51,460 nucleotides of DNA, taken from assembly GCA_964491435.1 (NCBI GenBank), contig CAZBGE010000004.1:1-51460 (forward strand). Direction: 5' to 3'. The notes under the pieces are model-generated. The model saw only the letters and a list, made by a program, of their open reading frames with translations, had not been told where the DNA came from and ran no database searches. Each line of letters opens with the position of its first letter. Positions within the stretch are counted from its first letter, which is position 1. This stretch comes from an uncultured Smithella sp. GTDB taxonomy: Bacteria > Desulfobacterota > Syntrophia > Syntrophales > Smithellaceae. This document shows, piece after piece, positions 1 through 47,410 of the stretch. The translations under genes were made by a program, and so were the position numbers.

Positions 1-6
1 GAAACG

Positions 7-1071
7 TTATTTTTCGGCGGATTGTTTCCGCAATTGGTCTCCTAAAATTTGCTGGATGCCGGAAAAAGACTTGAAGTTAGAAGCGCCTTCGACAGTTTTC
101 ACGGCAATGTCCTGCACTTTCTGATAAGCGGCCTCCAGTTGTTGCGAAAGGATGGTTATTCTTTCATTCTGTTCTTTGACGGTTTTTTCGAGAGATTCGG
201 AACGGGCTTTAAAGACATTATGTTCGCCTTCAAATTGTTTTTTGAGCAGGTCTTCTTTGTTTTTTGCTTCCAGCAGGATTCTTTCCGCCGAGTCTTTAAC
301 AGCTTTATTAACGGCAACTTCCAGTTCTTTCGGGAATGCCGCGGCTCTTTTGCGTAGCTCAATCAATTCATCTTCTTTTTCAGCAATTGACTGTTCCCTT
401 GATTTTAGCTCTTTTTCCACCACTTCTTTCTTCGATTTTATTTCCATATCCAGTTTGTTGTTTTCATATGCAGCTTTATCTTTAAGCTGTTGCTGTTCCT
501 TTTTGAAAGCATAATCGAATTCTTCCTTCTCTCTGATCTGCCTTTTCTTCTCGACGGCATCTCTTTCTTTTGTTGCGGCTTCGTGTTCATCTTTCTCTTT
601 TTCCCATGCCTCATGCGTAGCTTCCATTTCCTGACTTAATGCCTCTTTTTTTCGTTCCATTTCGGCCAGAAAATCGTCCCGCTTCATATTTTGCGCCTCA
701 ATTAATGCAGCGAGCGACATGGCAGATTTTTCAATTTCGTATAATTCCTGCAGCTCTTTTTCTTTGGCGGATATTGCATTTTGCAGAGCGTTCAGTCTGA
801 TCACCTGAGCTTCCAGCGTATCGGAAATCTGTGTCAGTGTCTTACCTATATCAATTTTGACGCTACCCAATTCACGGACGACTCCTTCCGCCGTAAGCGA
901 TTCGGCAATTTTTACCGTTTCGGCAATCTTTTTTTCCTCCAGCTTCTTTTCCGGCTTCATGGCGCTTTCCTGTCTTTCCTGCATTACTTTCAGAAGCTCG
1001 TTATACGCACTAAGCATTTCTTCTTTAGTGTTTTTCGTCGAAAGCTTCTTTGTTTCTTTTTTTATTTCCAT
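7..1071 (-). CDS. Long coiled-coil hypothetical protein (354 aa, E/K-rich)
   Basis: Long ORF with heptad-like E/K/A/L composition throughout; no catalytic motif recognised. Confidence 0.8.
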   Translation of the reverse strand: MEIKKETKKLSTKNTKEEMLSAYNELLKVMQERQESAMKPEKKLEEKKIAETVKIAESLTAEGVVRELGSVKIDIGKTLTQISDTLEAQVIRLNALQNAISAKEKELQELYEIEKSAMSLAALIEAQNMKRDDFLAEMERKKEALSQEMEATHEAWEKEKDEHEAATKERDAVEKKRQIREKEEFDYAFKKEQQQLKDKAAYENNKLDMEIKSKKEVVEKELKSREQSIAEKEDELIELRKRAAAFPKELEVAVNKAVKDSAERILLEAKNKEDLLKKQFEGEHNVFKARSESLEKTVKEQNERITILSQQLEAAYQKVQDIAVKTVEGASNFKSFSGIQQILGDQLRKQSAEK

Positions 1072-1204
1072 GGTTTATTCCTTTCTTGATTCGATAATAA
1101 CTTCCGCGCCTGAACGTAACGAAATATCATGAATAAATCAACCAGACTTTTTTTAGAACCAGCAAGGCAAATGGAGATGAATGGGCGCAACAGGTATTTC
1201 CCGC

Positions 1205-1233
1205 TTGACTTGTAATCAATTATTGATTACATT
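1205..1233 (+). promoter_or_regulatory. sigma70-like promoter with palindromic operator for the TA operon
   Basis: TTGACT (1205-1210), 17 bp, TACATT (1228-1233); perfect inverted repeat TGTAATCAAT-T-ATTGATTACA (1211-1231) spans the spacer. Confidence 0.6.
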
Positions 1234-1239
1234 AAAATC

Positions 1240-1503
1240 ATGTTTAGAGTGTCGATTAAAAACAGAATTCTTAAAGATGTTGGCAAGATGCCTATGGCCA
1301 TACAAGAAAACTTGACGGCATTGGTGGAAGATTTAAGAGACAAAGGGCCGGTTCAACCGGATTGGCCTAATTACAGCAAGATCGGTAAAAACAAGTATCA
1401 TTGCCATTTGGCGCATAAATGGGTCGCGTGTTGGCGTTCTGAACATAAATCGTTGATTATAGAGGTGTATTATGCAGGCAGTCGTGAAAACGCCCCGTAT
1501 TGA
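1240..1503 (+). CDS. Type II TA toxin, RelE/HigB-like (87 aa)
   Basis: Size and pattern (YHCHL...VACW...IEVYYAGSRE) resemble RelE-superfamily toxins; overlaps a downstream HTH gene. Confidence 0.75.
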   Translation: MFRVSIKNRILKDVGKMPMAIQENLTALVEDLRDKGPVQPDWPNYSKIGKNKYHCHLAHKWVACWRSEHKSLIIEVYYAGSRENAPY

Positions 1504-1867
1504 GATCAGCATCAGGGGTGCGGCGATTCCGCCGAAGTTGATCGATGTTTTAAGGGAAGAATATGGAAACAAACTAAGTCTTGTTGAGGACCAAGACGAA
1601 AAGTTTATCGATGTTTTTGAAACAAAGTGGTTCAAGAGCATGAAAAGCAAAATGACGCCCGGCGTCTATATCCGTATTTGCCGCAAAAAAAAGGGACTGA
1701 CGCAACGTCAATTAGGTGAGGCGCTTGGTGGCATTCCAGCGCAAAATATTTCCGGGATGGAACGCGGAACCAGAGCGATCAGCCTGGCAATGGCCCAAAA
1801 ATTATCAGCATTCTTCCAGACCGGTGTTGAGAAATTTATTGCCGGAACTACAGAGGGGGCGGCATGA
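1472..1867 (+). CDS. XRE-family HTH antitoxin (HigA-like, 131 aa)
   Basis: C-terminal HTH (GLTQRQLGEALGGIPAQNISGMERG); GAGGTG RBS; toxin-first arrangement. Confidence 0.8.
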   Translation: MQAVVKTPRIEISIRGAAIPPKLIDVLREEYGNKLSLVEDQDEKFIDVFETKWFKSMKSKMTPGVYIRICRKKKGLTQRQLGEALGGIPAQNISGMERGTRAISLAMAQKLSAFFQTGVEKFIAGTTEGAA

Positions 1868-2043
1868 TCGGGAAAGGCGACAAAGACATTATTGCACCGT
1901 TTGACATGGCCGGAAAATCACAGGTGGTGACTGGCACGGCATCATTGTCTATGCTTTGCTGTTTGCGTGGAGACTGGTGTTCGCTATAATAAGTCAAAGG
2001 CAGAGTGAATCCATTATCCTTAATGGGTTTAGAATGATAGAAA

Positions 2044-2129
2044 GTCAGCTTAATTGAATGGCTGAATTCATGAAATACGTAAAGAAAACAATCATATTTA
2101 ATGGGAAGTTAATAAGTTTACAGCGTCCC
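2044..2129 (+). mobile_element. Relic right end of a RAYT-like element related to 2692-3847
   Basis: Ungapped 70/86 match (hand count) to 3761-3846; its last 24 nt are an exact reverse complement of 2693-2716. Confidence 0.75.
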
Positions 2130-2142
2130 TCTGTTTTTCCGG

Positions 2143-2465
2143 ATGAGAACAATAAAAACACTTCGCGACCTGTATAATTTCCCTGGATTCCGTGCACGTG
2201 CCATGCTCAAGCCTCACCCGGAAGATAAAGAAGGATATATTGCTACCCTCGAACGCCGCCAAAAAAAACTGTCTGTTCCGGCTGCGGCAAAGTATTGTCA
2301 AGTTATCGTGACCGGCGAACTCATATTGTGCGAGACTTGGATGCCGGGGCAACCCATATCTATCTTGAATTTGAGTATCGCCGGGTTGCCTGCCCTCATT
2401 GTAACGCCGTGAAGCGTGAAACTCTTTCATTGCTGGCCAAGTCAGCCCGATTCACGCAACGGTTT
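2143..2465 (+). pseudogene. ISL3-family transposase 5' fragment with a frameshift at an A8 run
   Basis: LYNFPGFR...RRQKK, then in the -1 frame TVCSGCG...RDRRTHIVRDL...EFEYRRVACPHC (zf-ISL3-like); truncated at 2465. Confidence 0.8.
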
Positions 2466-2690
2466 GGAATTCAGGGGACATAACACTTAATTATCGATCA
2501 TTTTTTTTGGTCCCGGCTTTTGTTTTTGTAACGCACGTCCGGTAAGCTTTTCAATCTTCTTTACAAAATCATGGTTTCCTGCCGGTCGTCCTGTGCGGGA
2601 TGAGCGTTTCACTTTGAATATATCGTCGCTGTCCCCGGTTGTTTCAAGTAAGTATTTCCGCCAGTCCTTAATCAAACCATAGACACCGCT
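2466..2690 (-). pseudogene. 3' fragment and end of a second RAYT-like (Y1 HUH) transposase
   Basis: ORF 2487-2675 has a RAYT-like tail (RTGRPAGNHDFVKKIEKLTGRALQKQKPGPKK); stop followed by TATGTCCCCTGAATTCC; 5' part cut off at the neighbouring element. Confidence 0.65.
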
Positions 2691-2691
2691 G

Positions 2692-3847
2692 GGGGACGCT
2701 GTAAACTTATTAACTTTCTCATTGACAACGAAGTAAAATCAATCTATTGGGAACGTCATGCCAAGAGGAGCGCGTATAGATGCAGTCAATGCCGTCCATC
2801 ATATCATGGTGCGAGGCATTGAACGCAGGAAGATATTCGATTCTGATGCCGATCGGGATCATTTCCTTCATCGGATGGGCGAGATTCTTCTGGATACCGG
2901 AACAACCTGTTTTGCCTGGTCATTGATGCCCAATCATTTTCATCTGCTTTGCCGCACGGGAAACATACCGATTTCAACCGTGATGAGGCGACTGTTGACC
3001 GGATATGCCAACTGGTTTAACCGGAGCCGACGTCGGCACGGCCATCTTTTTCAGAATCGATTCAAATCCATTTTGTGCCAGGAGGATGCCTATCTTCTGG
3101 AACTGGTTCGCTACATTCATCTTAATCCGCTGCGTGCCGGTTTGGTTCAGGGATTGGACGGTTTGGACAGCTATCCGTATTCCGGCCACGGCGCCCTGAT
3201 GGAAAGAGATCATCATCCCTGGCAGGAAACGGAAGGGATTCTGGGGCTTTTTGGAAAGAGCCGGGATTTGGCGCGTCAGTCCTATCGACTGTTTGTGAAG
3301 CAGGGACTCGAACAGGGCAGACGGCATGATCTGGCAGGCGGGGGCTTAATCCGTAGCGCAGGCGGCTGGGAGGGGCTGAAGCAGAAAAGGGAGGAAGGGA
3401 CTTACCAGCGAAGTGATGAAAGAATACTGGGTGACAGCGATTTTGTCAGTCAGGTGTTGTCAAAGGCGGAAGAAGCAATCAAGAAAAGTCATTTGCTACG
3501 ATCCAGCGGCATGGACTTAGAGCAGGTTGCATTGCGCGTTTCGGAATTAATGGGGGTCAAACCCGAAGATGTCCGTGCAGCCGGGAAGCAGCAACACATC
3601 GTGAACGCCCGAAGCCTGTTTTGCTATTGGGCTGTTCGGGAGCTTGGAGAGACGATGGCCAGTTTGTCCCGCAATTTTGGCTTATCCATTCCGGCTATCA
3701 GTAAATCGGTTGTCCGGGGCCGGCAGATTGCCGAGGCCAACGGGTTCAAACTGATTGATAGTTAGCTTATTTGAATGCCAGAGTTAATGAAATACCTATA
3801 TAAAACAAGTACATTGAATGGTAAGTTAATAAGTAAACAGCGTCCCC
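2692..3847 (+). mobile_element. Putative intact element: RAYT-like transposase bounded by 25-bp inverted repeats
   Basis: 2692-2716 GGGGACGCTGTAAACTTATTAACTT and 3823-3847 AAGTTAATAAGTAAACAGCGTCCCC are 23/25 inverted; TTGACA at 2722-2727; no obvious target duplication. Confidence 0.7.
2758..3765 (+). CDS. REP-associated tyrosine transposase-like (Y1_Tnp) with C-terminal DnaA-C-like HTH
   Basis: HHIMVRG, HUH motif PNHFHLL, RYIHLNP catalytic Tyr; C-terminal ARSLFCYWAVRELGETMASLSRNFG. Confidence 0.88.
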   Translation: MPRGARIDAVNAVHHIMVRGIERRKIFDSDADRDHFLHRMGEILLDTGTTCFAWSLMPNHFHLLCRTGNIPISTVMRRLLTGYANWFNRSRRRHGHLFQNRFKSILCQEDAYLLELVRYIHLNPLRAGLVQGLDGLDSYPYSGHGALMERDHHPWQETEGILGLFGKSRDLARQSYRLFVKQGLEQGRRHDLAGGGLIRSAGGWEGLKQKREEGTYQRSDERILGDSDFVSQVLSKAEEAIKKSHLLRSSGMDLEQVALRVSELMGVKPEDVRAAGKQQHIVNARSLFCYWAVRELGETMASLSRNFGLSIPAISKSVVRGRQIAEANGFKLIDS

Positions 3848-5233
3848 TTAGGTTCTGATTTTTAAGTTTACTTGCAGATATTTTTTGAATGCTTCAAAAT
3901 CCTTGGACATTTTGATGGCGCCGCCTTCCCGGCGGGCCAGATCTTTCATGCTCTCCGGCGGCTCTGGGTCAATTCCCAGAAGATTCTTGATTTCATCCGG
4001 GAATTTGGCCGGGTGGGCGGTTTCCAGGCAAATAGCCAGCTTATCGTCGCCGGTTTTCTGAAAATACGCTTCCAGTCCCTTCCATCCCACAGCGCCGTGC
4101 TGTTCCAGTATGACACGGTAACGCTCGTAAACGCTCTTAATGGTTTGGCGGGTTTGTTCGTCGGTGACGCTGATGGAGAAAATGCGGCGGCGCATTTCCT
4201 CAAGATCGGGATAGCGATAGACATGGCCCGCGCGATCCACGGAACCGCCGTATAATTCAAAGAAACGCGCCAGATTGCTGGGATGTCCGACATTCATGGC
4301 GTTGGAAATGCAGGCCCGCGAGGGCGACACCTTCCGGTATTGGCCTGTCTCCAGAAAGACCGGAAATTCGTCATTTTCGTTGGTGGGCATGATCAGTTTG
4401 GACACCGGCAATCCCATCCGGCGGGCGTATTCGCAGCCCAGGGCGTCGCCGAAATTTCCGGAGGGGACGGAAACCACCACTTCCTCGCCGGCTCCCGCCA
4501 GTTGGGCATAGGCGTAAATATAATAAACAATCTGAGGCAAAATGCGGCCGAAATTAATGGAATTGGCCGAAGACAAATTAAAATGGGCCAAATCGGCGTC
4601 GGCGAAGGCTTCTTTGACCAGGTTCTGGCAGTCGTCGAATTTGCCATCCACGCACATGGCCTGAACGTTGCCACCAATGGTGTCGAGTTGCTTCTTCTGC
4701 ATCAGGCTCACTTCACCCGCAGGATACAAAATGGTCACATCAATGCCCGCAACGCCTTTATAAGCTTCTCCCACAGCGCTTCCTGTGTCGCCGGATGTCG
4801 CCACCAGGATATTGAGCCTTTCTCCCTCAGGCCGGCAGTAGCTCATGAGCCTCGCCATCATCCGGGCGGCAAAATCCTTAAAGGACGCGGTTGGCCCCTG
4901 ATCCAGGCGTAAAATAAACGCATGCGGGTAAACAGCCTCCAGCGGCACAGGGTAGTTATAAGCGTCCCTGACAATGGCTTCGAGAATATCTACTGGAAAT
5001 TCTCCGGAAAGAAAGGATTTGGCGACAAGCAGCGCGGCCTGCCAGTAGGGTTTGTCCCGAAGCGCCATCATATCATTCATGGAAAGCTGCGGAATGATAT
5101 CGGGAACAAACAAACCTTCGTCCGGCGCCTGTCCTTTAAGGAGCGCTTCCTTAAAAGACACGTTTCCGGTAAAAGGTGTAATTCCCGCAATATTATTTAC
5201 ATGACGATTCGTACTGTAATATCTGATGGCCAT
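3848..5233 (-). CDS. thrC: Threonine synthase
   Basis: GPTASFKDF PLP-Lys motif, ATSGDTG, PSGNFG, ETAHPAKF; start moved to MAIRYYST at 5233. Confidence 0.93.
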   Translation of the reverse strand: MAIRYYSTNRHVNNIAGITPFTGNVSFKEALLKGQAPDEGLFVPDIIPQLSMNDMMALRDKPYWQAALLVAKSFLSGEFPVDILEAIVRDAYNYPVPLEAVYPHAFILRLDQGPTASFKDFAARMMARLMSYCRPEGERLNILVATSGDTGSAVGEAYKGVAGIDVTILYPAGEVSLMQKKQLDTIGGNVQAMCVDGKFDDCQNLVKEAFADADLAHFNLSSANSINFGRILPQIVYYIYAYAQLAGAGEEVVVSVPSGNFGDALGCEYARRMGLPVSKLIMPTNENDEFPVFLETGQYRKVSPSRACISNAMNVGHPSNLARFFELYGGSVDRAGHVYRYPDLEEMRRRIFSISVTDEQTRQTIKSVYERYRVILEQHGAVGWKGLEAYFQKTGDDKLAICLETAHPAKFPDEIKNLLGIDPEPPESMKDLARREGGAIKMSKDFEAFKKYLQVNLKIRT

Positions 5234-5429
5234 CCTGTGCATCCCTTTTCAATGTGCTTTCCTATAAGCTGATTGGCGCAAATAAATCAATCAAAAAACG
5301 ACAATCGGAAATACGGGGAACAATCACTCCCGTTGCCGAATACCTGTTGGAAAATACCGGTTTCTATGTTAAAAATCGCAAATGTTCCAGTGAGAAAAAC
5401 TGATATTTATTTCAAGGTTGAGGGAAAAA

Positions 5430-6482
5430 ATGGCAGAAAAAAAACCCATCCGTTTGACGGAAACAGTCCAGAGCGCGGGTTGAGCCTGTAAGATCGGTCC
5501 GGGGGACCTGTCTGACATTCTCTGTGATTTGCCGCTCATTTCCGATCCTCATTTACTGACCGGATATGAACATGCGGAAGACGCGGGCGTGTATAAAATT
5601 TCCGACGACCTCGCGCTGGTGCAGACGGTGGACTTCTTCACTCCGACTGTGGATGATCCCTATACTTTCGGCCAGATTGCCGCAACCAATGCGCTCAATG
5701 ATGTTTATGCCATGGGCGGTAAGCCCATCACCGCCATGAATATTGTTTGCTTTCCGATCAAGACGATGGATAAATCCGTTCTGCGGGACGTGCTGCGCGG
5801 GGGTCTGGATAAAATGCGTGAAGCGGGCGTTCTGTTAATGGGCGGGCACAGCGTGGAAGACAATGAAATCAAATACGGCCTGTCTGTGACCGGCACGATT
5901 CATCCGGATCGTATCCTGTTTAATCGCGGCGCGCAACCGGGCGATTGTCTGGTTTTAACCAAGCCGCTGGGCACGGGCATTGTCAGCACGGCGCTCAAGG
6001 CCAATGCCGTTTCTGACGCGCTTCTGCGGAAGGCCATCGCCTGCATGACCCGGCTCAACAAGCAGGCTTCCGAACTGATGCTTGCCGCGGGAGATATTCA
6101 TTCCTGCACGGATATTACCGGCTTCGGTTTTCTGGGGCATGCCTGCGAAACCATTGAAGGCAGCGACGTTGGTCTGCGGATTTTTTCAAAGGCGATACCA
6201 ATCCTGGAAGGTGTCCGCGATCTGGCCGAAACGGGGCTGATGCCCGGCGGCCTTTACCGCAACCGCAATTTCCGCATCGCGCAGGTCGAAAAGGCTCCGG
6301 CCTGTCCGGACTGGATTTTTGATGTTTGTTTCGATCCGCAGACGGCGGGCGGCTTGTTTTTCAGCCTGCCGGCGGCAAAAGCGCAGGCGCTTGTGGAAAC
6401 GATGCGGCAGGCAGGCATGGCGGATGCGGCCATTGTGGGAGATGTGTCAAGCGAACATCCGGGTAAAATTTTCATGGAGTAA
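5430..6482 (+). CDS. selD: Selenide, water dikinase; selenoprotein with Sec at codon 18 (TGA 5481-5483)
   Basis: In-frame extension of the tracked ORF: MAEKKPIRLTETVQSAG-U-ACKIGPGDL; DFFTP, DVYAMGG, GGHS, TDITGFG, DPQTAGGL motifs. Confidence 0.95.
5491..5513 (+). promoter_or_regulatory. Putative bacterial SECIS hairpin
   Basis: AGA-TC-GGTCC-GGG-GGACC-TG-TCT stem-loop with a G-rich loop, starting 7 nt after the UGA. Confidence 0.6.
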
Positions 6483-45581: not shown

Positions 45582-46457
45582 ATGATTAACACCATCCTCA
45601 TGCCGGTTGACGGATCGGCCAACAGTTTCACCGCAGTTGATTACGGCGCCTATCTTGCGCCAAAACTTGAGGCCTCCCTGACAGGATTGCACGTCATTGA
45701 CGTCAATCTCCTTCAAGGGCCGATGATGACGGATATGTCCGCCACCGCCGAAATGCCATCCTGTGACGTTTTTTTCGAAGAGATTGAAACATCTCTGCAG
45801 GAAAAAGCTGATGACATATTGAAAAATTTTAGAGATCGATGCAAAACGGCAGGCGTTTCCTGTCTTGCCAAAAAAAATATCGGCGCCATCAAATCCGCCA
45901 TCATTGAAGAAGCCGAAACGTCTGATTTAGTTGTCATGGCAAAAAATGGGAAGCGCTTTCATCTCAAAGAAGGCGGCATGATCGGCTCAGTCACCGAAGT
46001 TGTGATTCGCCGTTCAGGAAAGCCAGTTATGGTTATTCCCGAATCCTTTCAAAAAATTAAAAGCATAGGAATGGCTTACGACGGCAGCGCTTCCGCCAGA
46101 GAAGCGTTACAACTGACGCTGAATGTTTCCAAGCAGACCAAATGGCCGGTGACCGTCGTGATCATCAGCGCGGATACAGCCAAAGCGGCGGATTTATCGG
46201 CACAGGTCAAGTCCATCGCCCAAGAAGGCCTGGCGGGCTGCGAAGTTATCATTTCATCAGGCAAGGAAGCAGATGAAATCCTCAAATTCATCAGGGCGGG
46301 TTCGATAGAACTGATGGCCATGGGGGCATACGGCCACAACCGTCTGCGTGAACTGATCCTGGGCAGCACAACCTCCCAAATCATCCAGAAAAGCCCCATT
46401 CCCATATTACTGGTCCGTGACCCTTTTAAAATCCGGAAACGCAGCGTCAAACGGTGA
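45582..46457 (+). CDS. Universal stress protein (two USP domains)
   Basis: ILMPVDGS; MGAYGHNRLRELILGSTT. Confidence 0.9.
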   Translation: MINTILMPVDGSANSFTAVDYGAYLAPKLEASLTGLHVIDVNLLQGPMMTDMSATAEMPSCDVFFEEIETSLQEKADDILKNFRDRCKTAGVSCLAKKNIGAIKSAIIEEAETSDLVVMAKNGKRFHLKEGGMIGSVTEVVIRRSGKPVMVIPESFQKIKSIGMAYDGSASAREALQLTLNVSKQTKWPVTVVIISADTAKAADLSAQVKSIAQEGLAGCEVIISSGKEADEILKFIRAGSIELMAMGAYGHNRLRELILGSTTSQIIQKSPIPILLVRDPFKIRKRSVKR

Positions 46458-46573
46458 TTGCTGAATTTCTGCGCGCATCCCGGACAAAAGGCTATGGTTA
46501 ACGCAAGGTGTTTGCCAACGTGTTGCGATGAAAAATGGAAATAAGTCCGCCTGAGCAAAAGGAGAAAATCATC

Positions 46574-47410
46574 ATGTTCAAAAACATTCTTGTTCCAGTT
46601 GACGGATCGGCCAACAGCGCCACCGCAGTCAATTACGGCATTTATATCGCGCCAAAATTCGAGGCATCCCTGACGGGGCTCCACGTCATCGACATATTTC
46701 TCATTCAGGGACCGGTAACGACGGACATTTCCGCCGCCGGAATGCCGCCCTGTGACGGTTTTTTTGAAGTCGTCGAAGCATCTTTGGAAGAAAAAGCCGA
46801 TTTAATATTAAAAAACTTTCAGGAACGCTGCCAAACAGCCGGCGTTGCCTGCTCTGCCCAAAAAAGCATCGGTAAAATCAGCGACAACATCATTGAAGAA
46901 GCAGGAAACGCTGATTTGATTTTAATGGCGAAAAAAGGAGAGCATTTTCACTTAAAGGAAGGGGGGCTGCTCGGGTCGGTGGCTGAAGCCGTGATTCGCC
47001 ATTCAGGAAAACCAGTGATGGTCGTTCCGGAATCCTATTGCGAAATCGAAAGCATGGGACTGGCCTATGACGGCAGCGCCTCTGCAAAAAAAGCATTGGC
47101 TTTGTCTTTGAGCATCTCCGAACAGGCCAAATGGCCGATTACCGTTGTGATTGTCAGCGCGGATACGGCAAAAGCGGCGGCTTTATCGGAACAGGTCGAG
47201 GACATGGCCCAAAAAGGCTTGGCCGATTGCGAAATCATCATTTCGTCAGGCAAAGAAGCGGATGAAATCCTGAAGTTCATTCGTGAAGGTTCCGTAGAGT
47301 TGATGGTTATGGGCGCATACGGCCATAACCGTCTGCGCGAATTGATCCTGGGCAGCACAACCTCCCACATCATTCAGAAAAGCCCGGTTCCGGTGCTTCT
47401 GATCCGTTGA
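46574..47410 (+). CDS. Universal stress protein (two USP domains), tandem paralog
   Basis: MFKNILVPVDGS; MGAYGHNRLRELILGSTT; start moved to 46574 (GGAG RBS). Confidence 0.9.
   Translation: MFKNILVPVDGSANSATAVNYGIYIAPKFEASLTGLHVIDIFLIQGPVTTDISAAGMPPCDGFFEVVEASLEEKADLILKNFQERCQTAGVACSAQKSIGKISDNIIEEAGNADLILMAKKGEHFHLKEGGLLGSVAEAVIRHSGKPVMVVPESYCEIESMGLAYDGSASAKKALALSLSISEQAKWPITVVIVSADTAKAAALSEQVEDMAQKGLADCEIIISSGKEADEILKFIREGSVELMVMGAYGHNRLRELILGSTTSHIIQKSPVPVLLIR

Follow-up and report, generated by a model that had tools for sequence, protein, structure and literature searches.

The segment at positions 2692-3847 of contig CAZBGE010000004.1, from an uncultured Smithella sp. (GCA_964491435.1), is a unit of about 1.16 kb in which a single HUH/tyrosine transposase gene lies between inverted repeats; it was analysed within the first 51,460 nt of the contig, the whole of which is hereafter called the window. 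Our results indicate that this unit is probably an insertion sequence (IS)-like element of the TIRYT/TIRtron kind, in which a gene combining an HUH domain with a helix-turn-helix (HTH) is enclosed by 24-bp repeats, GGGACGCTGTTAACTTATTAACTT, and would be moved by a mechanism based on the bipartite structure of these repeats. RAYT-like genes flanked by terminal inverted repeats were given the names TIRYT and TIRtron in a survey that found the motif GGGGWSAS in the majority of them and occasional repeat families (Di Nocera, De Gregorio and Rocco, 2013, BMC Genomics 14:522, PMC3733652). Hence the TIRYT class is known, and what is new here is this well-resolved multi-copy family and its inner repeat, its unexplained part being a junction zone of about 10 nt.

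Organization of the element

The two arms of the inverted repeat, each of 25 nt, lie at 2692-2716 (GGGGACGCTGTAAACTTATTAACTT) and 3823-3847 (AAGTTAATAAGTAAACAGCGTCCCC), and are complementary at 23 of 25 positions (92%). Allowing up to 3 mismatches, the repeat motif was located at three sites in the 51-kb window (2106-2130, 2692-2716 and 3823-3847), and 100 shuffles of the window gave 0 matches. The family core of 24 nt, GGGACGCTGTTAACTTATTAACTT, corresponds at the left end to positions 2693-2716, with its terminus at GGGAC, and the left and right window repeats are each one base off the family consensus GTTAAC core. With an open frame, the HUH and tyrosine residues present, and each repeat a single base from the consensus, the window copy looks intact. 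Its length of 1154-1156 bp is shared by L001, L102 and L110, and the other elements listed measure 1076-1130 bp.

An earlier note on this DNA, made from the letters alone, had described the 23/25 repeats around one gene, a right repeat adjoining the thrC stop codon, and the lack of a target duplication, and all three observations were borne out: the right repeat ends at 3847, the stop codon occupies 3848-3850, and no target duplication was found at the window copy. The Y1 HUH gene is the sole gene enclosed, no DDE transposase gene being present inside the element; furthermore, no Rfam family was found in window positions 1-6000, and no tRNA in the whole window. Regarding the possible promoter just inward of the left repeat, a (c)cTTGAC motif is seen by eye at the position of the TTGACA box in most A- and W-type left ends; the box was not significant in a promoter scan, showed column conservation below 90%, and is without a good -10 partner.

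The encoded protein

The predicted architecture of the 335-aa protein consists of a RAYT-like Y1 HUH domain, a helical linker, and an HTH resembling DnaA domain IV. Residues 13-121 match Pfam Y1_Tnp (E 2.6e-12), with the HUH motif at H60-F61-H62 (nt 2935-2943) and the catalytic Tyr119 within RYIHLNP (nt 3112-3114); H60, F61, H62 and Y119 are invariant across an alignment of 18 homologues (63-89% identity). Compared with the NCBIfam REP_Tyr_transpos RAYT equivalog, the window protein scored 66.3 bits against a cut-off of 80.

The DnaA-domain-IV-like HTH spans approximately residues 248-328 (nt 3499-3741), and a Bac_DnaA_C match was obtained at residues 255-308 (5e-5), its 23.6 bits being under the cut-off of 31.5. 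A profile of the 18-sequence alignment matched DnaA domain IV (2z4r) over residues 248-323 (E 0.014), and a single-sequence PDB search with the window protein gave no match, whereas the profile and fold searches did. The AlphaFold2 model of the protein (mean pLDDT 78) had as its top Foldseek match the E. coli RAYT-REP complex 4er8 (E 7.7e-7, TM 0.71), followed by the TnpA proteins of IS200/IS605 and then by the DnaA DNA-binding domain (DBD); the C-terminal domain of the model aligned to the DnaA-DBD on its DnaA box (3pvp, 1j1v) with TM 0.62-0.68. Both domain calls made from the letters, Y1 HUH and a DnaA-C-like HTH, stand on this evidence. Moreover, PF08299 is precomputed for several close homologues, and the C-terminal half alone retrieved 3,297 clusters at 50% identity, the module lying at residues 153-334 of full-length members.

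Over residues 1 to about 130-190, that is, the catalytic domain, the identity of the window protein to the five closest named TIRYTs, namely sml4509, dau2153, gbm2474, sml1152 and pca3049, is 31-36% (E 1e-21 to 1e-28). Identity was 30% to aba2776 and 28% to gsu2396 (E ~2e-18), and 22% to the E. coli RAYT (E 0.015).

Relatives and conservation of the repeats

More than 8,000 database relatives of the window protein were recorded, mostly from Smithellaceae and Syntrophales, labelled 'transposase' or 'RayT'. Two sets of loci were assembled: species-representative genomes were scanned by protein, which yielded 19 loci and constitutes an unbiased set with respect to the repeats, and metagenomes were scanned by exact 24-mer, which yielded at least 120 loci. 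As the latter were picked by exact repeat match, the apparent repeat conservation is inflated among them. All protein-found loci with a whole gene carry GGGACGCTGTTAACTTATTAACTT at both ends in inverted orientation, the core lying about 40 nt 5' of the ATG and usually about 6 nt 3' of the stop codon; beyond the core, each locus has unrelated DNA.

Pooling genome and metagenome loci gave at least 186 ends, at least 165 of them unique, and at least 30 plus/minus repeat pairs spaced 1076-1156 bp. The search of genomes proposed in the earlier note thus returned pairs that enclose homologous genes, or doublets resembling miniature inverted-repeat transposable elements (MITEs), with constant core ends. 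Among the loci listed, the core is unchanged even where the enclosed protein is no more than 62% identical. Aligning 28 elements gave a conservation of 98.5% for the left core and 57% for the spacer to the ATG; within the coding region, conservation at codon position 3 is 0.65, versus 0.84 and 0.90 at positions 1 and 2. The repeats are under far stronger constraint than the coding sequence. The exact repeat was absent from the viral contigs of IMG/VR. A 2.9-kb contig binned as a Thermoplasmatota archaeon (L018, JAQUQK010000207.1) holds a fragment about 92% DNA-identical to the Smithellaceae element; this archaeal placement is most likely a binning error, not a transfer to an archaeon.

Structure of the ends

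Subterminal hairpins and repetitive extragenic palindromes (REPs) were looked for on both strands at both ends of the window copy and of L007, and none was found; since folding was no better than that of shuffled sequence, the ends carry neither IS608-type hairpins nor REP palindromes, and their description in the earlier note as true terminal inverted repeats holds. Only a weak 5-bp AT stem was seen, with z-scores of -0.5 to +1.9, and no GTAG. A candidate terminal hairpin formed together with the flank (AACAG, loop GGGACG, CTGTT) was rejected, given that no more than about 30% of ends have C at -4 and G at -2, and that the hairpin is absent from the window's intact copy.

The core is bipartite, with an outer part, GGGACGCTG, and an inner part, GTTAACTT-ATTAACTT, made of two tandem 8-mers, RTTAACTT. 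The outer start recurs around a 30%-identical homologue from Fibrobacterota (L019, GGGGACGGAGCTGCAG), and the ends of distant plasmid-borne homologues read GGGGTCAGGCC in Sporomusa and GGGTCAGGCC in Legionella. Thus, an outer GGGG(A/T)C is common to TIRYT relatives that are only 25-32% identical, and the inner part differs by family. Compared with GGGGWSAS, the start of the window repeat, GGGGACGC, agrees at 7/8 positions, with G for A at position 7, the first G being variable in relatives; of the plasmid homologues, that of Sporomusa fits exactly (GGGGTCAG) and that of Legionella reads (A)GGGTCAG. A likeness of TTATTAACT to the DnaA box TTWTNCACA (7/9 by eye) was considered and discarded as too weak to count.

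Evidence of mobility

The 5.2-Mb chromosome OY821638.1 contains three full copies of the element plus remnants; two of the copies, L007 at 2.27 Mb and L008 at 2.89 Mb, 620 kb from each other, share 99.1% identity over 1104 bp. Flanking DNA is unrelated even between ends whose interior sequences agree at 95% or more. Like the window copy, the 28 distinct full-length pairs examined at other loci all lack a target duplication, and a palindromic target was likewise not apparent, the inverted repeat running on into the flank in only one element of the 28 pairs (L135).

At the thrC locus, contigs of the same strain all carry the element, and it is absent downstream of thrC orthologues with 89-91% identity. 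In one of these, L146 (ThrC 91% identical), synteny extends to the thrC stop plus 1 nt, is followed by 354 nt of other DNA, and picks up again at window position 2004. The empty thrC alleles that the earlier note had proposed to seek were thus recovered as element-less orthologues, but not as a clean empty site. A second locus was informative among strains with 100% identical YtfJ: L152, which is the L007 locus, has the element, and L153 and L154 have an intact vapBC. The flanks of L152 and L153 are 100% identical over 319 nt and diverge 10 nt before the repeat core; as vapC does not resume beyond the element in L152, a deletion or rearrangement was involved. This constitutes a recent presence/absence difference, though not a clean empty site. 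Taken together, the many contexts, near-identical copies, strain polymorphism and MITE-like derivatives support the view that the gene-plus-repeats unit behaves as mobile DNA.

Flanking bias and the junction zone

In the 165 ends listed, a purine occupies position -1 in 91%, A occupies -3 in 71% and -5 in 60%, and the stretch from -7 to -10 is rich in G, this bias being seen at both element ends. The flank motif varies by subfamily: TAAAYR precedes 10/10 L020-like (B-type) ends, and the looser GGAAYARR is found in the L007-like group. The right flank in the window, CTAAG (the thrC stop plus one base), is identical in the element-less L146 and is therefore target DNA, so that at this site the bias is a target preference.

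At L152, 10 nt (GAGCAACTAG, 4381-4390) lie outside the core, and the sister copy L008 has GACCAACAAG, with 8/10 bases the same; because the homology between L152 and L153 stops 10 nt before the core, GAGCAACTAG came in with the element. Such extra outer bases do not exist at the window's thrC junction. As to whether the outer ~10 nt might be a fixed part of the element, the evidence is divided: L152/L153 support this, and thrC contradicts it, since there host coding sequence that L146 also has extends to GGGAC. Several other observations concern the same interval. Exactly 11 nt beyond the core are shared in two unrelated pairs (the window remnant with L004, and L051 with L069), and the match between closely related ends is 41-62% over positions -1 to -11, dropping to background level from -12 outward. 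Internal duplications in L011 and L114 carry 12-13 nt of flank, and a tandemly duplicated unit, 10 nt of flank joined to the initial 9 nt of the core (GGGACGCTG), is found at the right end of L135 and at the left end of L139. A further duplication, with 11 nt of flank and the first 9 core nt, occurs at L147 1721-1759, which corresponds to the thrC junction of the window as found in a strain whose ThrC is 99% identical; this duplication lies at a contig end and may be an assembly artefact. L009 and L104 are also listed with tandem duplications of 19-20 nt of flank plus core.

Hence, a recurrent junction zone about 10-13 nt outside the core is an unexplained part of the element; on one reading of these sequences, cleavage or joining could take place at the core boundary or, alternatively, one helical turn further out. 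As a separate case, in L051 (1-130) the initial ~70 codons of a further TIRYT gene copy, followed by 9-11 nt in common with the otherwise unrelated L069, stand before a full element, which is a nested or rearranged junction.

Solo ends and gene-less derivatives

About 70 of the 165 unique ends listed are solo: TIRYT coding sequence is lacking up to 400 nt away, and a partner repeat up to 1.6 kb away. In several of them 8-100 nt of the interior survive, as in the window remnant, so that they look like decayed elements. Gene-less doublets of 93, 218, 249 and 259 bp keep both repeats, and three of them keep bits of the gene; a 319-bp doublet candidate was seen in L070, its partner repeat having 6 mismatches. 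The smallest derivative seen is the 93-bp mini-element at L090 2977-3069, in which a 29-bp inverted repeat, including ATTGC/GCAAT, surrounds 45 non-coding nt. That the repeats might belong to an independent MITE or REP family, as the earlier note had contemplated, applies in part, namely to the approximately 70 of 165 unique metagenome ends that are solo, and all full-length loci are paired.

Among 103 open reading frames (ORFs) neighbouring solo ends, AbiEii occurred 3 times, and HEPN, PIN, ParE and NTP_transf_5 2 times each; with 103 control ORFs located over 2.5 kb away, none of these toxin-antitoxin families ranked among the most frequent. At L075 188-2244 the order is repeat, HEPN/MNT, repeat, VapBC, repeat, with all 3 repeats in the same orientation (also in L044). 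The over-representation of toxin-antitoxin genes next to solo repeats is suggestive only. In L089 (3112-4219), inverted repeats 1108 bp apart surround a 278-aa ORF that by eye resembles a pfkB-type sugar kinase, without a TIRYT gene; two solo ends of independent origin, or the capture of a host gene, would account for this pair.

Genomic neighbourhood of the window copy

The features in and around the element are collected in Table 1. The third repeat of the window, 2106-2130, is a right-type end that closes a direct repeat of 108 nt (2022-2129) 80% identical to 3739-3846 and is therefore the leftover of a second element; the 57-nt subfamily spacer is also present in it. This is the sister end that had been noticed some 560 bp upstream, and the distance between the remnant repeat and the intact left repeat is 561-563 nt.

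Table 1. Coordinates of the element and of adjacent features in the window.
Feature	Position (nt)	Strand	Evidence or remark
Right-end remnant of a second copy (repeat 2106-2130, subfamily spacer, last gene codons)	2022..2130	-	1 repeat mismatch
ISL3-family transposase, frameshifted N-terminal fragment (zinc-ribbon region only)	2143..2483	+	Zn_ribbon_ISL3 4.7e-6; transpos_ISL3 1.6e-9
C-terminal remnant of a different TIRYT-type gene, 62-aa ORF	2487..2675	-	BLASTP to gsu2396 C-terminus
Left terminal inverted repeat	2692..2716	+	25-mer; core 98.5% conserved vs 57% for adjacent spacer
TTGACA box, possible -35 of the gene's own promoter (inferred)	2723..2728	+	Directly inside left repeat
TIRYT gene, 335 aa	2758..3765	+	Pfam, NCBIfam, alignment, AlphaFold2, Foldseek
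Spacer of 57 nt, stop codon to right repeat	3766..3822	+	Subfamily-specific; ~6 nt in most relatives
Right terminal inverted repeat	3823..3847	-	Last base adjoins thrC stop codon
thrC (threonine synthase)	3848..5242	-	Pfam Thr_synth_N, PALP, THR4_C

The 62-aa ORF has no Pfam match and is 42% identical to the C-terminus of Geobacter gsu2396 (E 4e-14, BLASTP), with the tail …TGRPAG…KPGPKK; it is truncated exactly at the intact left repeat, so that a TIRYT element abuts the wreck of another TIRYT type. The ISL3 fragment covers only profile positions 22-76 of 370 and is context debris between two TIRYT ends, outside the element.

Some 4 kb of accessory DNA separate thrC from an AmiA-like gene in the genome of the window; in L148 (ThrC 89% identical), the AmiA-like gene follows thrC directly, 44 nt apart. 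This accessory island also holds a coiled-coil protein gene (7-1071) and, at 1240-1867, an 87-aa ORF overlapping an HTH_3 gene in a toxin-antitoxin-like arrangement. A 13-nt inverted repeat, TGKCTATGSTTTG and its complement, brackets the variable segment 3' of thrC, both in the window (1946-1958 and 2673-2685, 714 nt between) and in the relative L146 (6424-6436 and 6787-6799, 350 nt between the arms); no tie to either TIRYT was established for this repeat in the two sequences. Elsewhere in the window (45582-47410), two tandem paralogous genes encode double-domain universal stress proteins of 291 aa each, with 76% DNA identity.

Proposed mechanism and alternative explanations

Since the outer part of the repeat is shared across distant families and the inner part is family-specific, we infer a division of labour in which the catalytic domain would act on the outer part and the HTH on the inner one. 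In the mechanism that we consider probable for this TIRYT element, the outer GGGG(A/T)C would be the substrate of the HUH/tyrosine active site, with one strand nicked and rejoined and no target duplication produced. The inner RTTAACTT 8-mers would be read as duplex by the DnaA-like HTH, placing the catalytic domain at each end, and this duplex reading would replace the hairpin recognition of IS200/IS605 TnpA and RAYTs. It is reasonable to propose that the HTH may read the repeats, the division into a shared outer and a family-specific inner part being the one piece of indirect support. Insertion would favour purine/A-rich flanks (A at -3, R at -1), which at thrC the TAA stop plus G would supply, and joining may take place at the core boundary or about 10 nt outside.

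Several points weigh against this account. The DnaA-like domain is under the Pfam threshold in the window protein, the assignment of repeat halves to protein domains rests on only four families, and the window's left flank, GCTGG, misfits the flank preference. Choosing the metagenome loci by repeat match inflates conservation, although the protein-selected loci show the same pattern, and the approximately 70 solo ends suggest a life of the repeat apart from the gene. Look-ups at thrC and ytfJ did not retrieve a clean empty site, the 354 nt of L146 being unrelated DNA; a circle junction, with abutting ends, is absent from the 672 kb of loci; and in the literature found, transposition, nicking or DNA binding is not reported for any TIRYT.

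A more far-reaching version, to which we give limited credence, holds that these are active transposons with a new HUH mechanism, in which duplex repeats would be read by the HTH and cleavage and joining would use two positions, solo ends, junction duplications and toxin-antitoxin cassettes being by-products. If true, it would represent an HUH-driven system that reshuffles accessory genes.

A domesticated, RAYT-like 'REPtron with TIRs' is an unlikely alternative, according to which the gene would be immobile and its product would maintain or spread the short repeat, as solo ends and doublets, as RAYTs do with REPs and REPINs, the two repeats around the gene being merely those nearest to it. 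The fold closest to that of the protein is indeed the E. coli RAYT 4er8, the 93-259 bp doublets resemble REPINs, repeat families exist in some genomes (Di Nocera et al., 2013, PMC3733652), and both the ends without gene or partner within 1.6 kb (~70/165 unique ends listed) and the L075 array of same-orientation solo repeats between toxin-antitoxin cassettes would follow naturally. However, the gene and both repeats are multi-copy together (three full copies in one chromosome, of which two share 99.1% identity), near-identical strains differ in carrying the unit, and homology between copies ends at or near the repeats. Moreover, the only 3 repeats of the 51-kb window are all tied to gene copies, the solo ends that retain 8-100 nt of interior resemble decayed elements, and the repeat is non-palindromic, with the protein scoring 66 versus 80 bits for the RAYT equivalog.

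It is very improbable that the repeats are operators through which the HTH protein controls its own gene or its neighbours, spread by ordinary recombination or horizontal transfer. The left repeat does lie directly 5' of the recurring TTGAC box, about 40 nt from the ATG, and a DnaA-like HTH is of the duplex-DNA binder type; nevertheless, an equally conserved inverted repeat with no obvious operator role stands 3' of the stop codon, the HUH and tyrosine residues are invariant, flanks turn unrelated at or near the repeats in dozens of contexts, and deletion derivatives retain both repeats. Finally, that the repeats come from another DDE-type transposon or MITE mobilised in trans, with the Y1 gene as a passenger, is hardly credible: DDE insertion sequences typically have terminal inverted repeats of 24-25 bp and ISL3 transposase debris lies 210 nt away, but 0/28 pairs have a target duplication, the repeat is always paired with the Y1 gene family at fixed distances, the repeats that distant homologues possess likewise begin with GGGG(A/T)C, and no DDE gene is found within the element.

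TIRYTs make up a large share of the Y1 HUH superfamily, and their mechanism is uncharacterised. The window family offers a compact handle on it, with a 335-aa protein, an invariant 24-bp repeat with two half-sites, and natural mini-elements of 93-259 bp, and its near-identical copies and strain polymorphisms suggest recent activity. If the HTH reads the duplex repeat and the HUH domain nicks at or near GGGAC, this would be a single-strand enzyme re-targeted from hairpins to inverted repeats. With respect to annotation, TIRYT genes are now labelled only 'transposase' or 'RayT', with their ends unmarked.

Comparison with known systems

The earlier note had regarded the element as an under-described class of mobile HUH element and as the best candidate for an undescribed system in the window. 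Copies, polymorphism and derivatives uphold the mobile behaviour; the reading as a new or undescribed class fails, since the names TIRYT/TIRtron were given in 2013 to RAYT-like genes with flanking terminal inverted repeats (PMC3733652), and these genes were mapped to subclass 2.1 in 2018 (Quentin, Siguier, Chandler and Fichant, 2018, BMC Genomics 19:475, PMC6006769). In the latter study, 20/26 TIRYTs were placed in TnpA-Y1 subclass 2.1, the second-largest Y1 subclass, present in 14.9% of the strains surveyed and equated there with TIRYTs. Some C-termini of subgroup 2.1.2 were similar to Bac_DnaA_C, HTH_23 or HTH_28, and its authors doubted that the DnaA-like domain reads the repeats, as GGGGWSAS is unlike the DnaA box, and left confirmation open; the repeats of 2.1.2 members were not analysed there (PMC6006769). 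Our literature search found no later papers using the terms TIRYT or TIRtron.

As in the TIRYTs/TIRtrons, the window family has a RAYT-like Y1 HUH gene with terminal inverted repeats in place of REPs, at roughly fixed distances, and repeats also away from the gene in some genomes. It differs in the C-terminus of the window protein, a DnaA-domain-IV-like HTH instead of the '...GRPxG...RGRPKK' tail of most 2013 examples, a tail type represented in the window only by the 2487-2675 remnant, and in having a new inner repeat and being clearly multi-copy, with near-identical copies. With subgroup 2.1.2 it shares a long RAYT-related protein, a Bac_DnaA_C-like C-terminal extension and no REPs nearby, an assignment that rests on architecture and on similarity to TIRYTs placed in 2.1; the difference is that here the family-specific inner half of the repeat, and not the GGGG part, is the candidate HTH site.

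Classical RAYTs are typically single, vertically inherited copies per genome, accompanied by high-copy palindromic REPs with a GTAG-like tag. The E. coli RAYT (YafM, 4er8) is the best structural match to the catalytic domain and has the same YxxxNP(V/L)RAGLV-type tyrosine motif, and as in RAYT/REP systems the gene is bracketed by inverted short repeats, with gene-less doublets and singlets. In contrast, the window-family repeats are non-palindromic and lack GTAG, and the gene is multi-copy and moves with them, with 3 full copies and remnants in OY821638.1 and the repeat only 3 times in the 51-kb window; furthermore, the protein has double the length, carries an additional HTH, and is under the NCBIfam RAYT cut-off.

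The likeness to IS200/IS605 (IS608, ISDra2 TnpA) lies in the Y1 HUH fold and the lack of a target duplication, and the partial flank bias is reminiscent of their fixed target tetra- or pentanucleotide. Unlike them, the window element has neither subterminal hairpins nor tnpB, its inverted-repeat ends differ from each other on any one strand, and the bias is seen at both ends, not at the left only. From DDE-type IS and MITEs it is distinguished by the lack of a target duplication (28 pairs) and of a DDE gene inside. Thus, the element is not an IS200/IS605 member (no hairpins) nor a classical RAYT (no REPs, under the cut-off, multi-copy), and, being closer to named TIRYTs (31-36%) than to the E. 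coli RAYT (22%), it is a member of the already named TIRYT kind.

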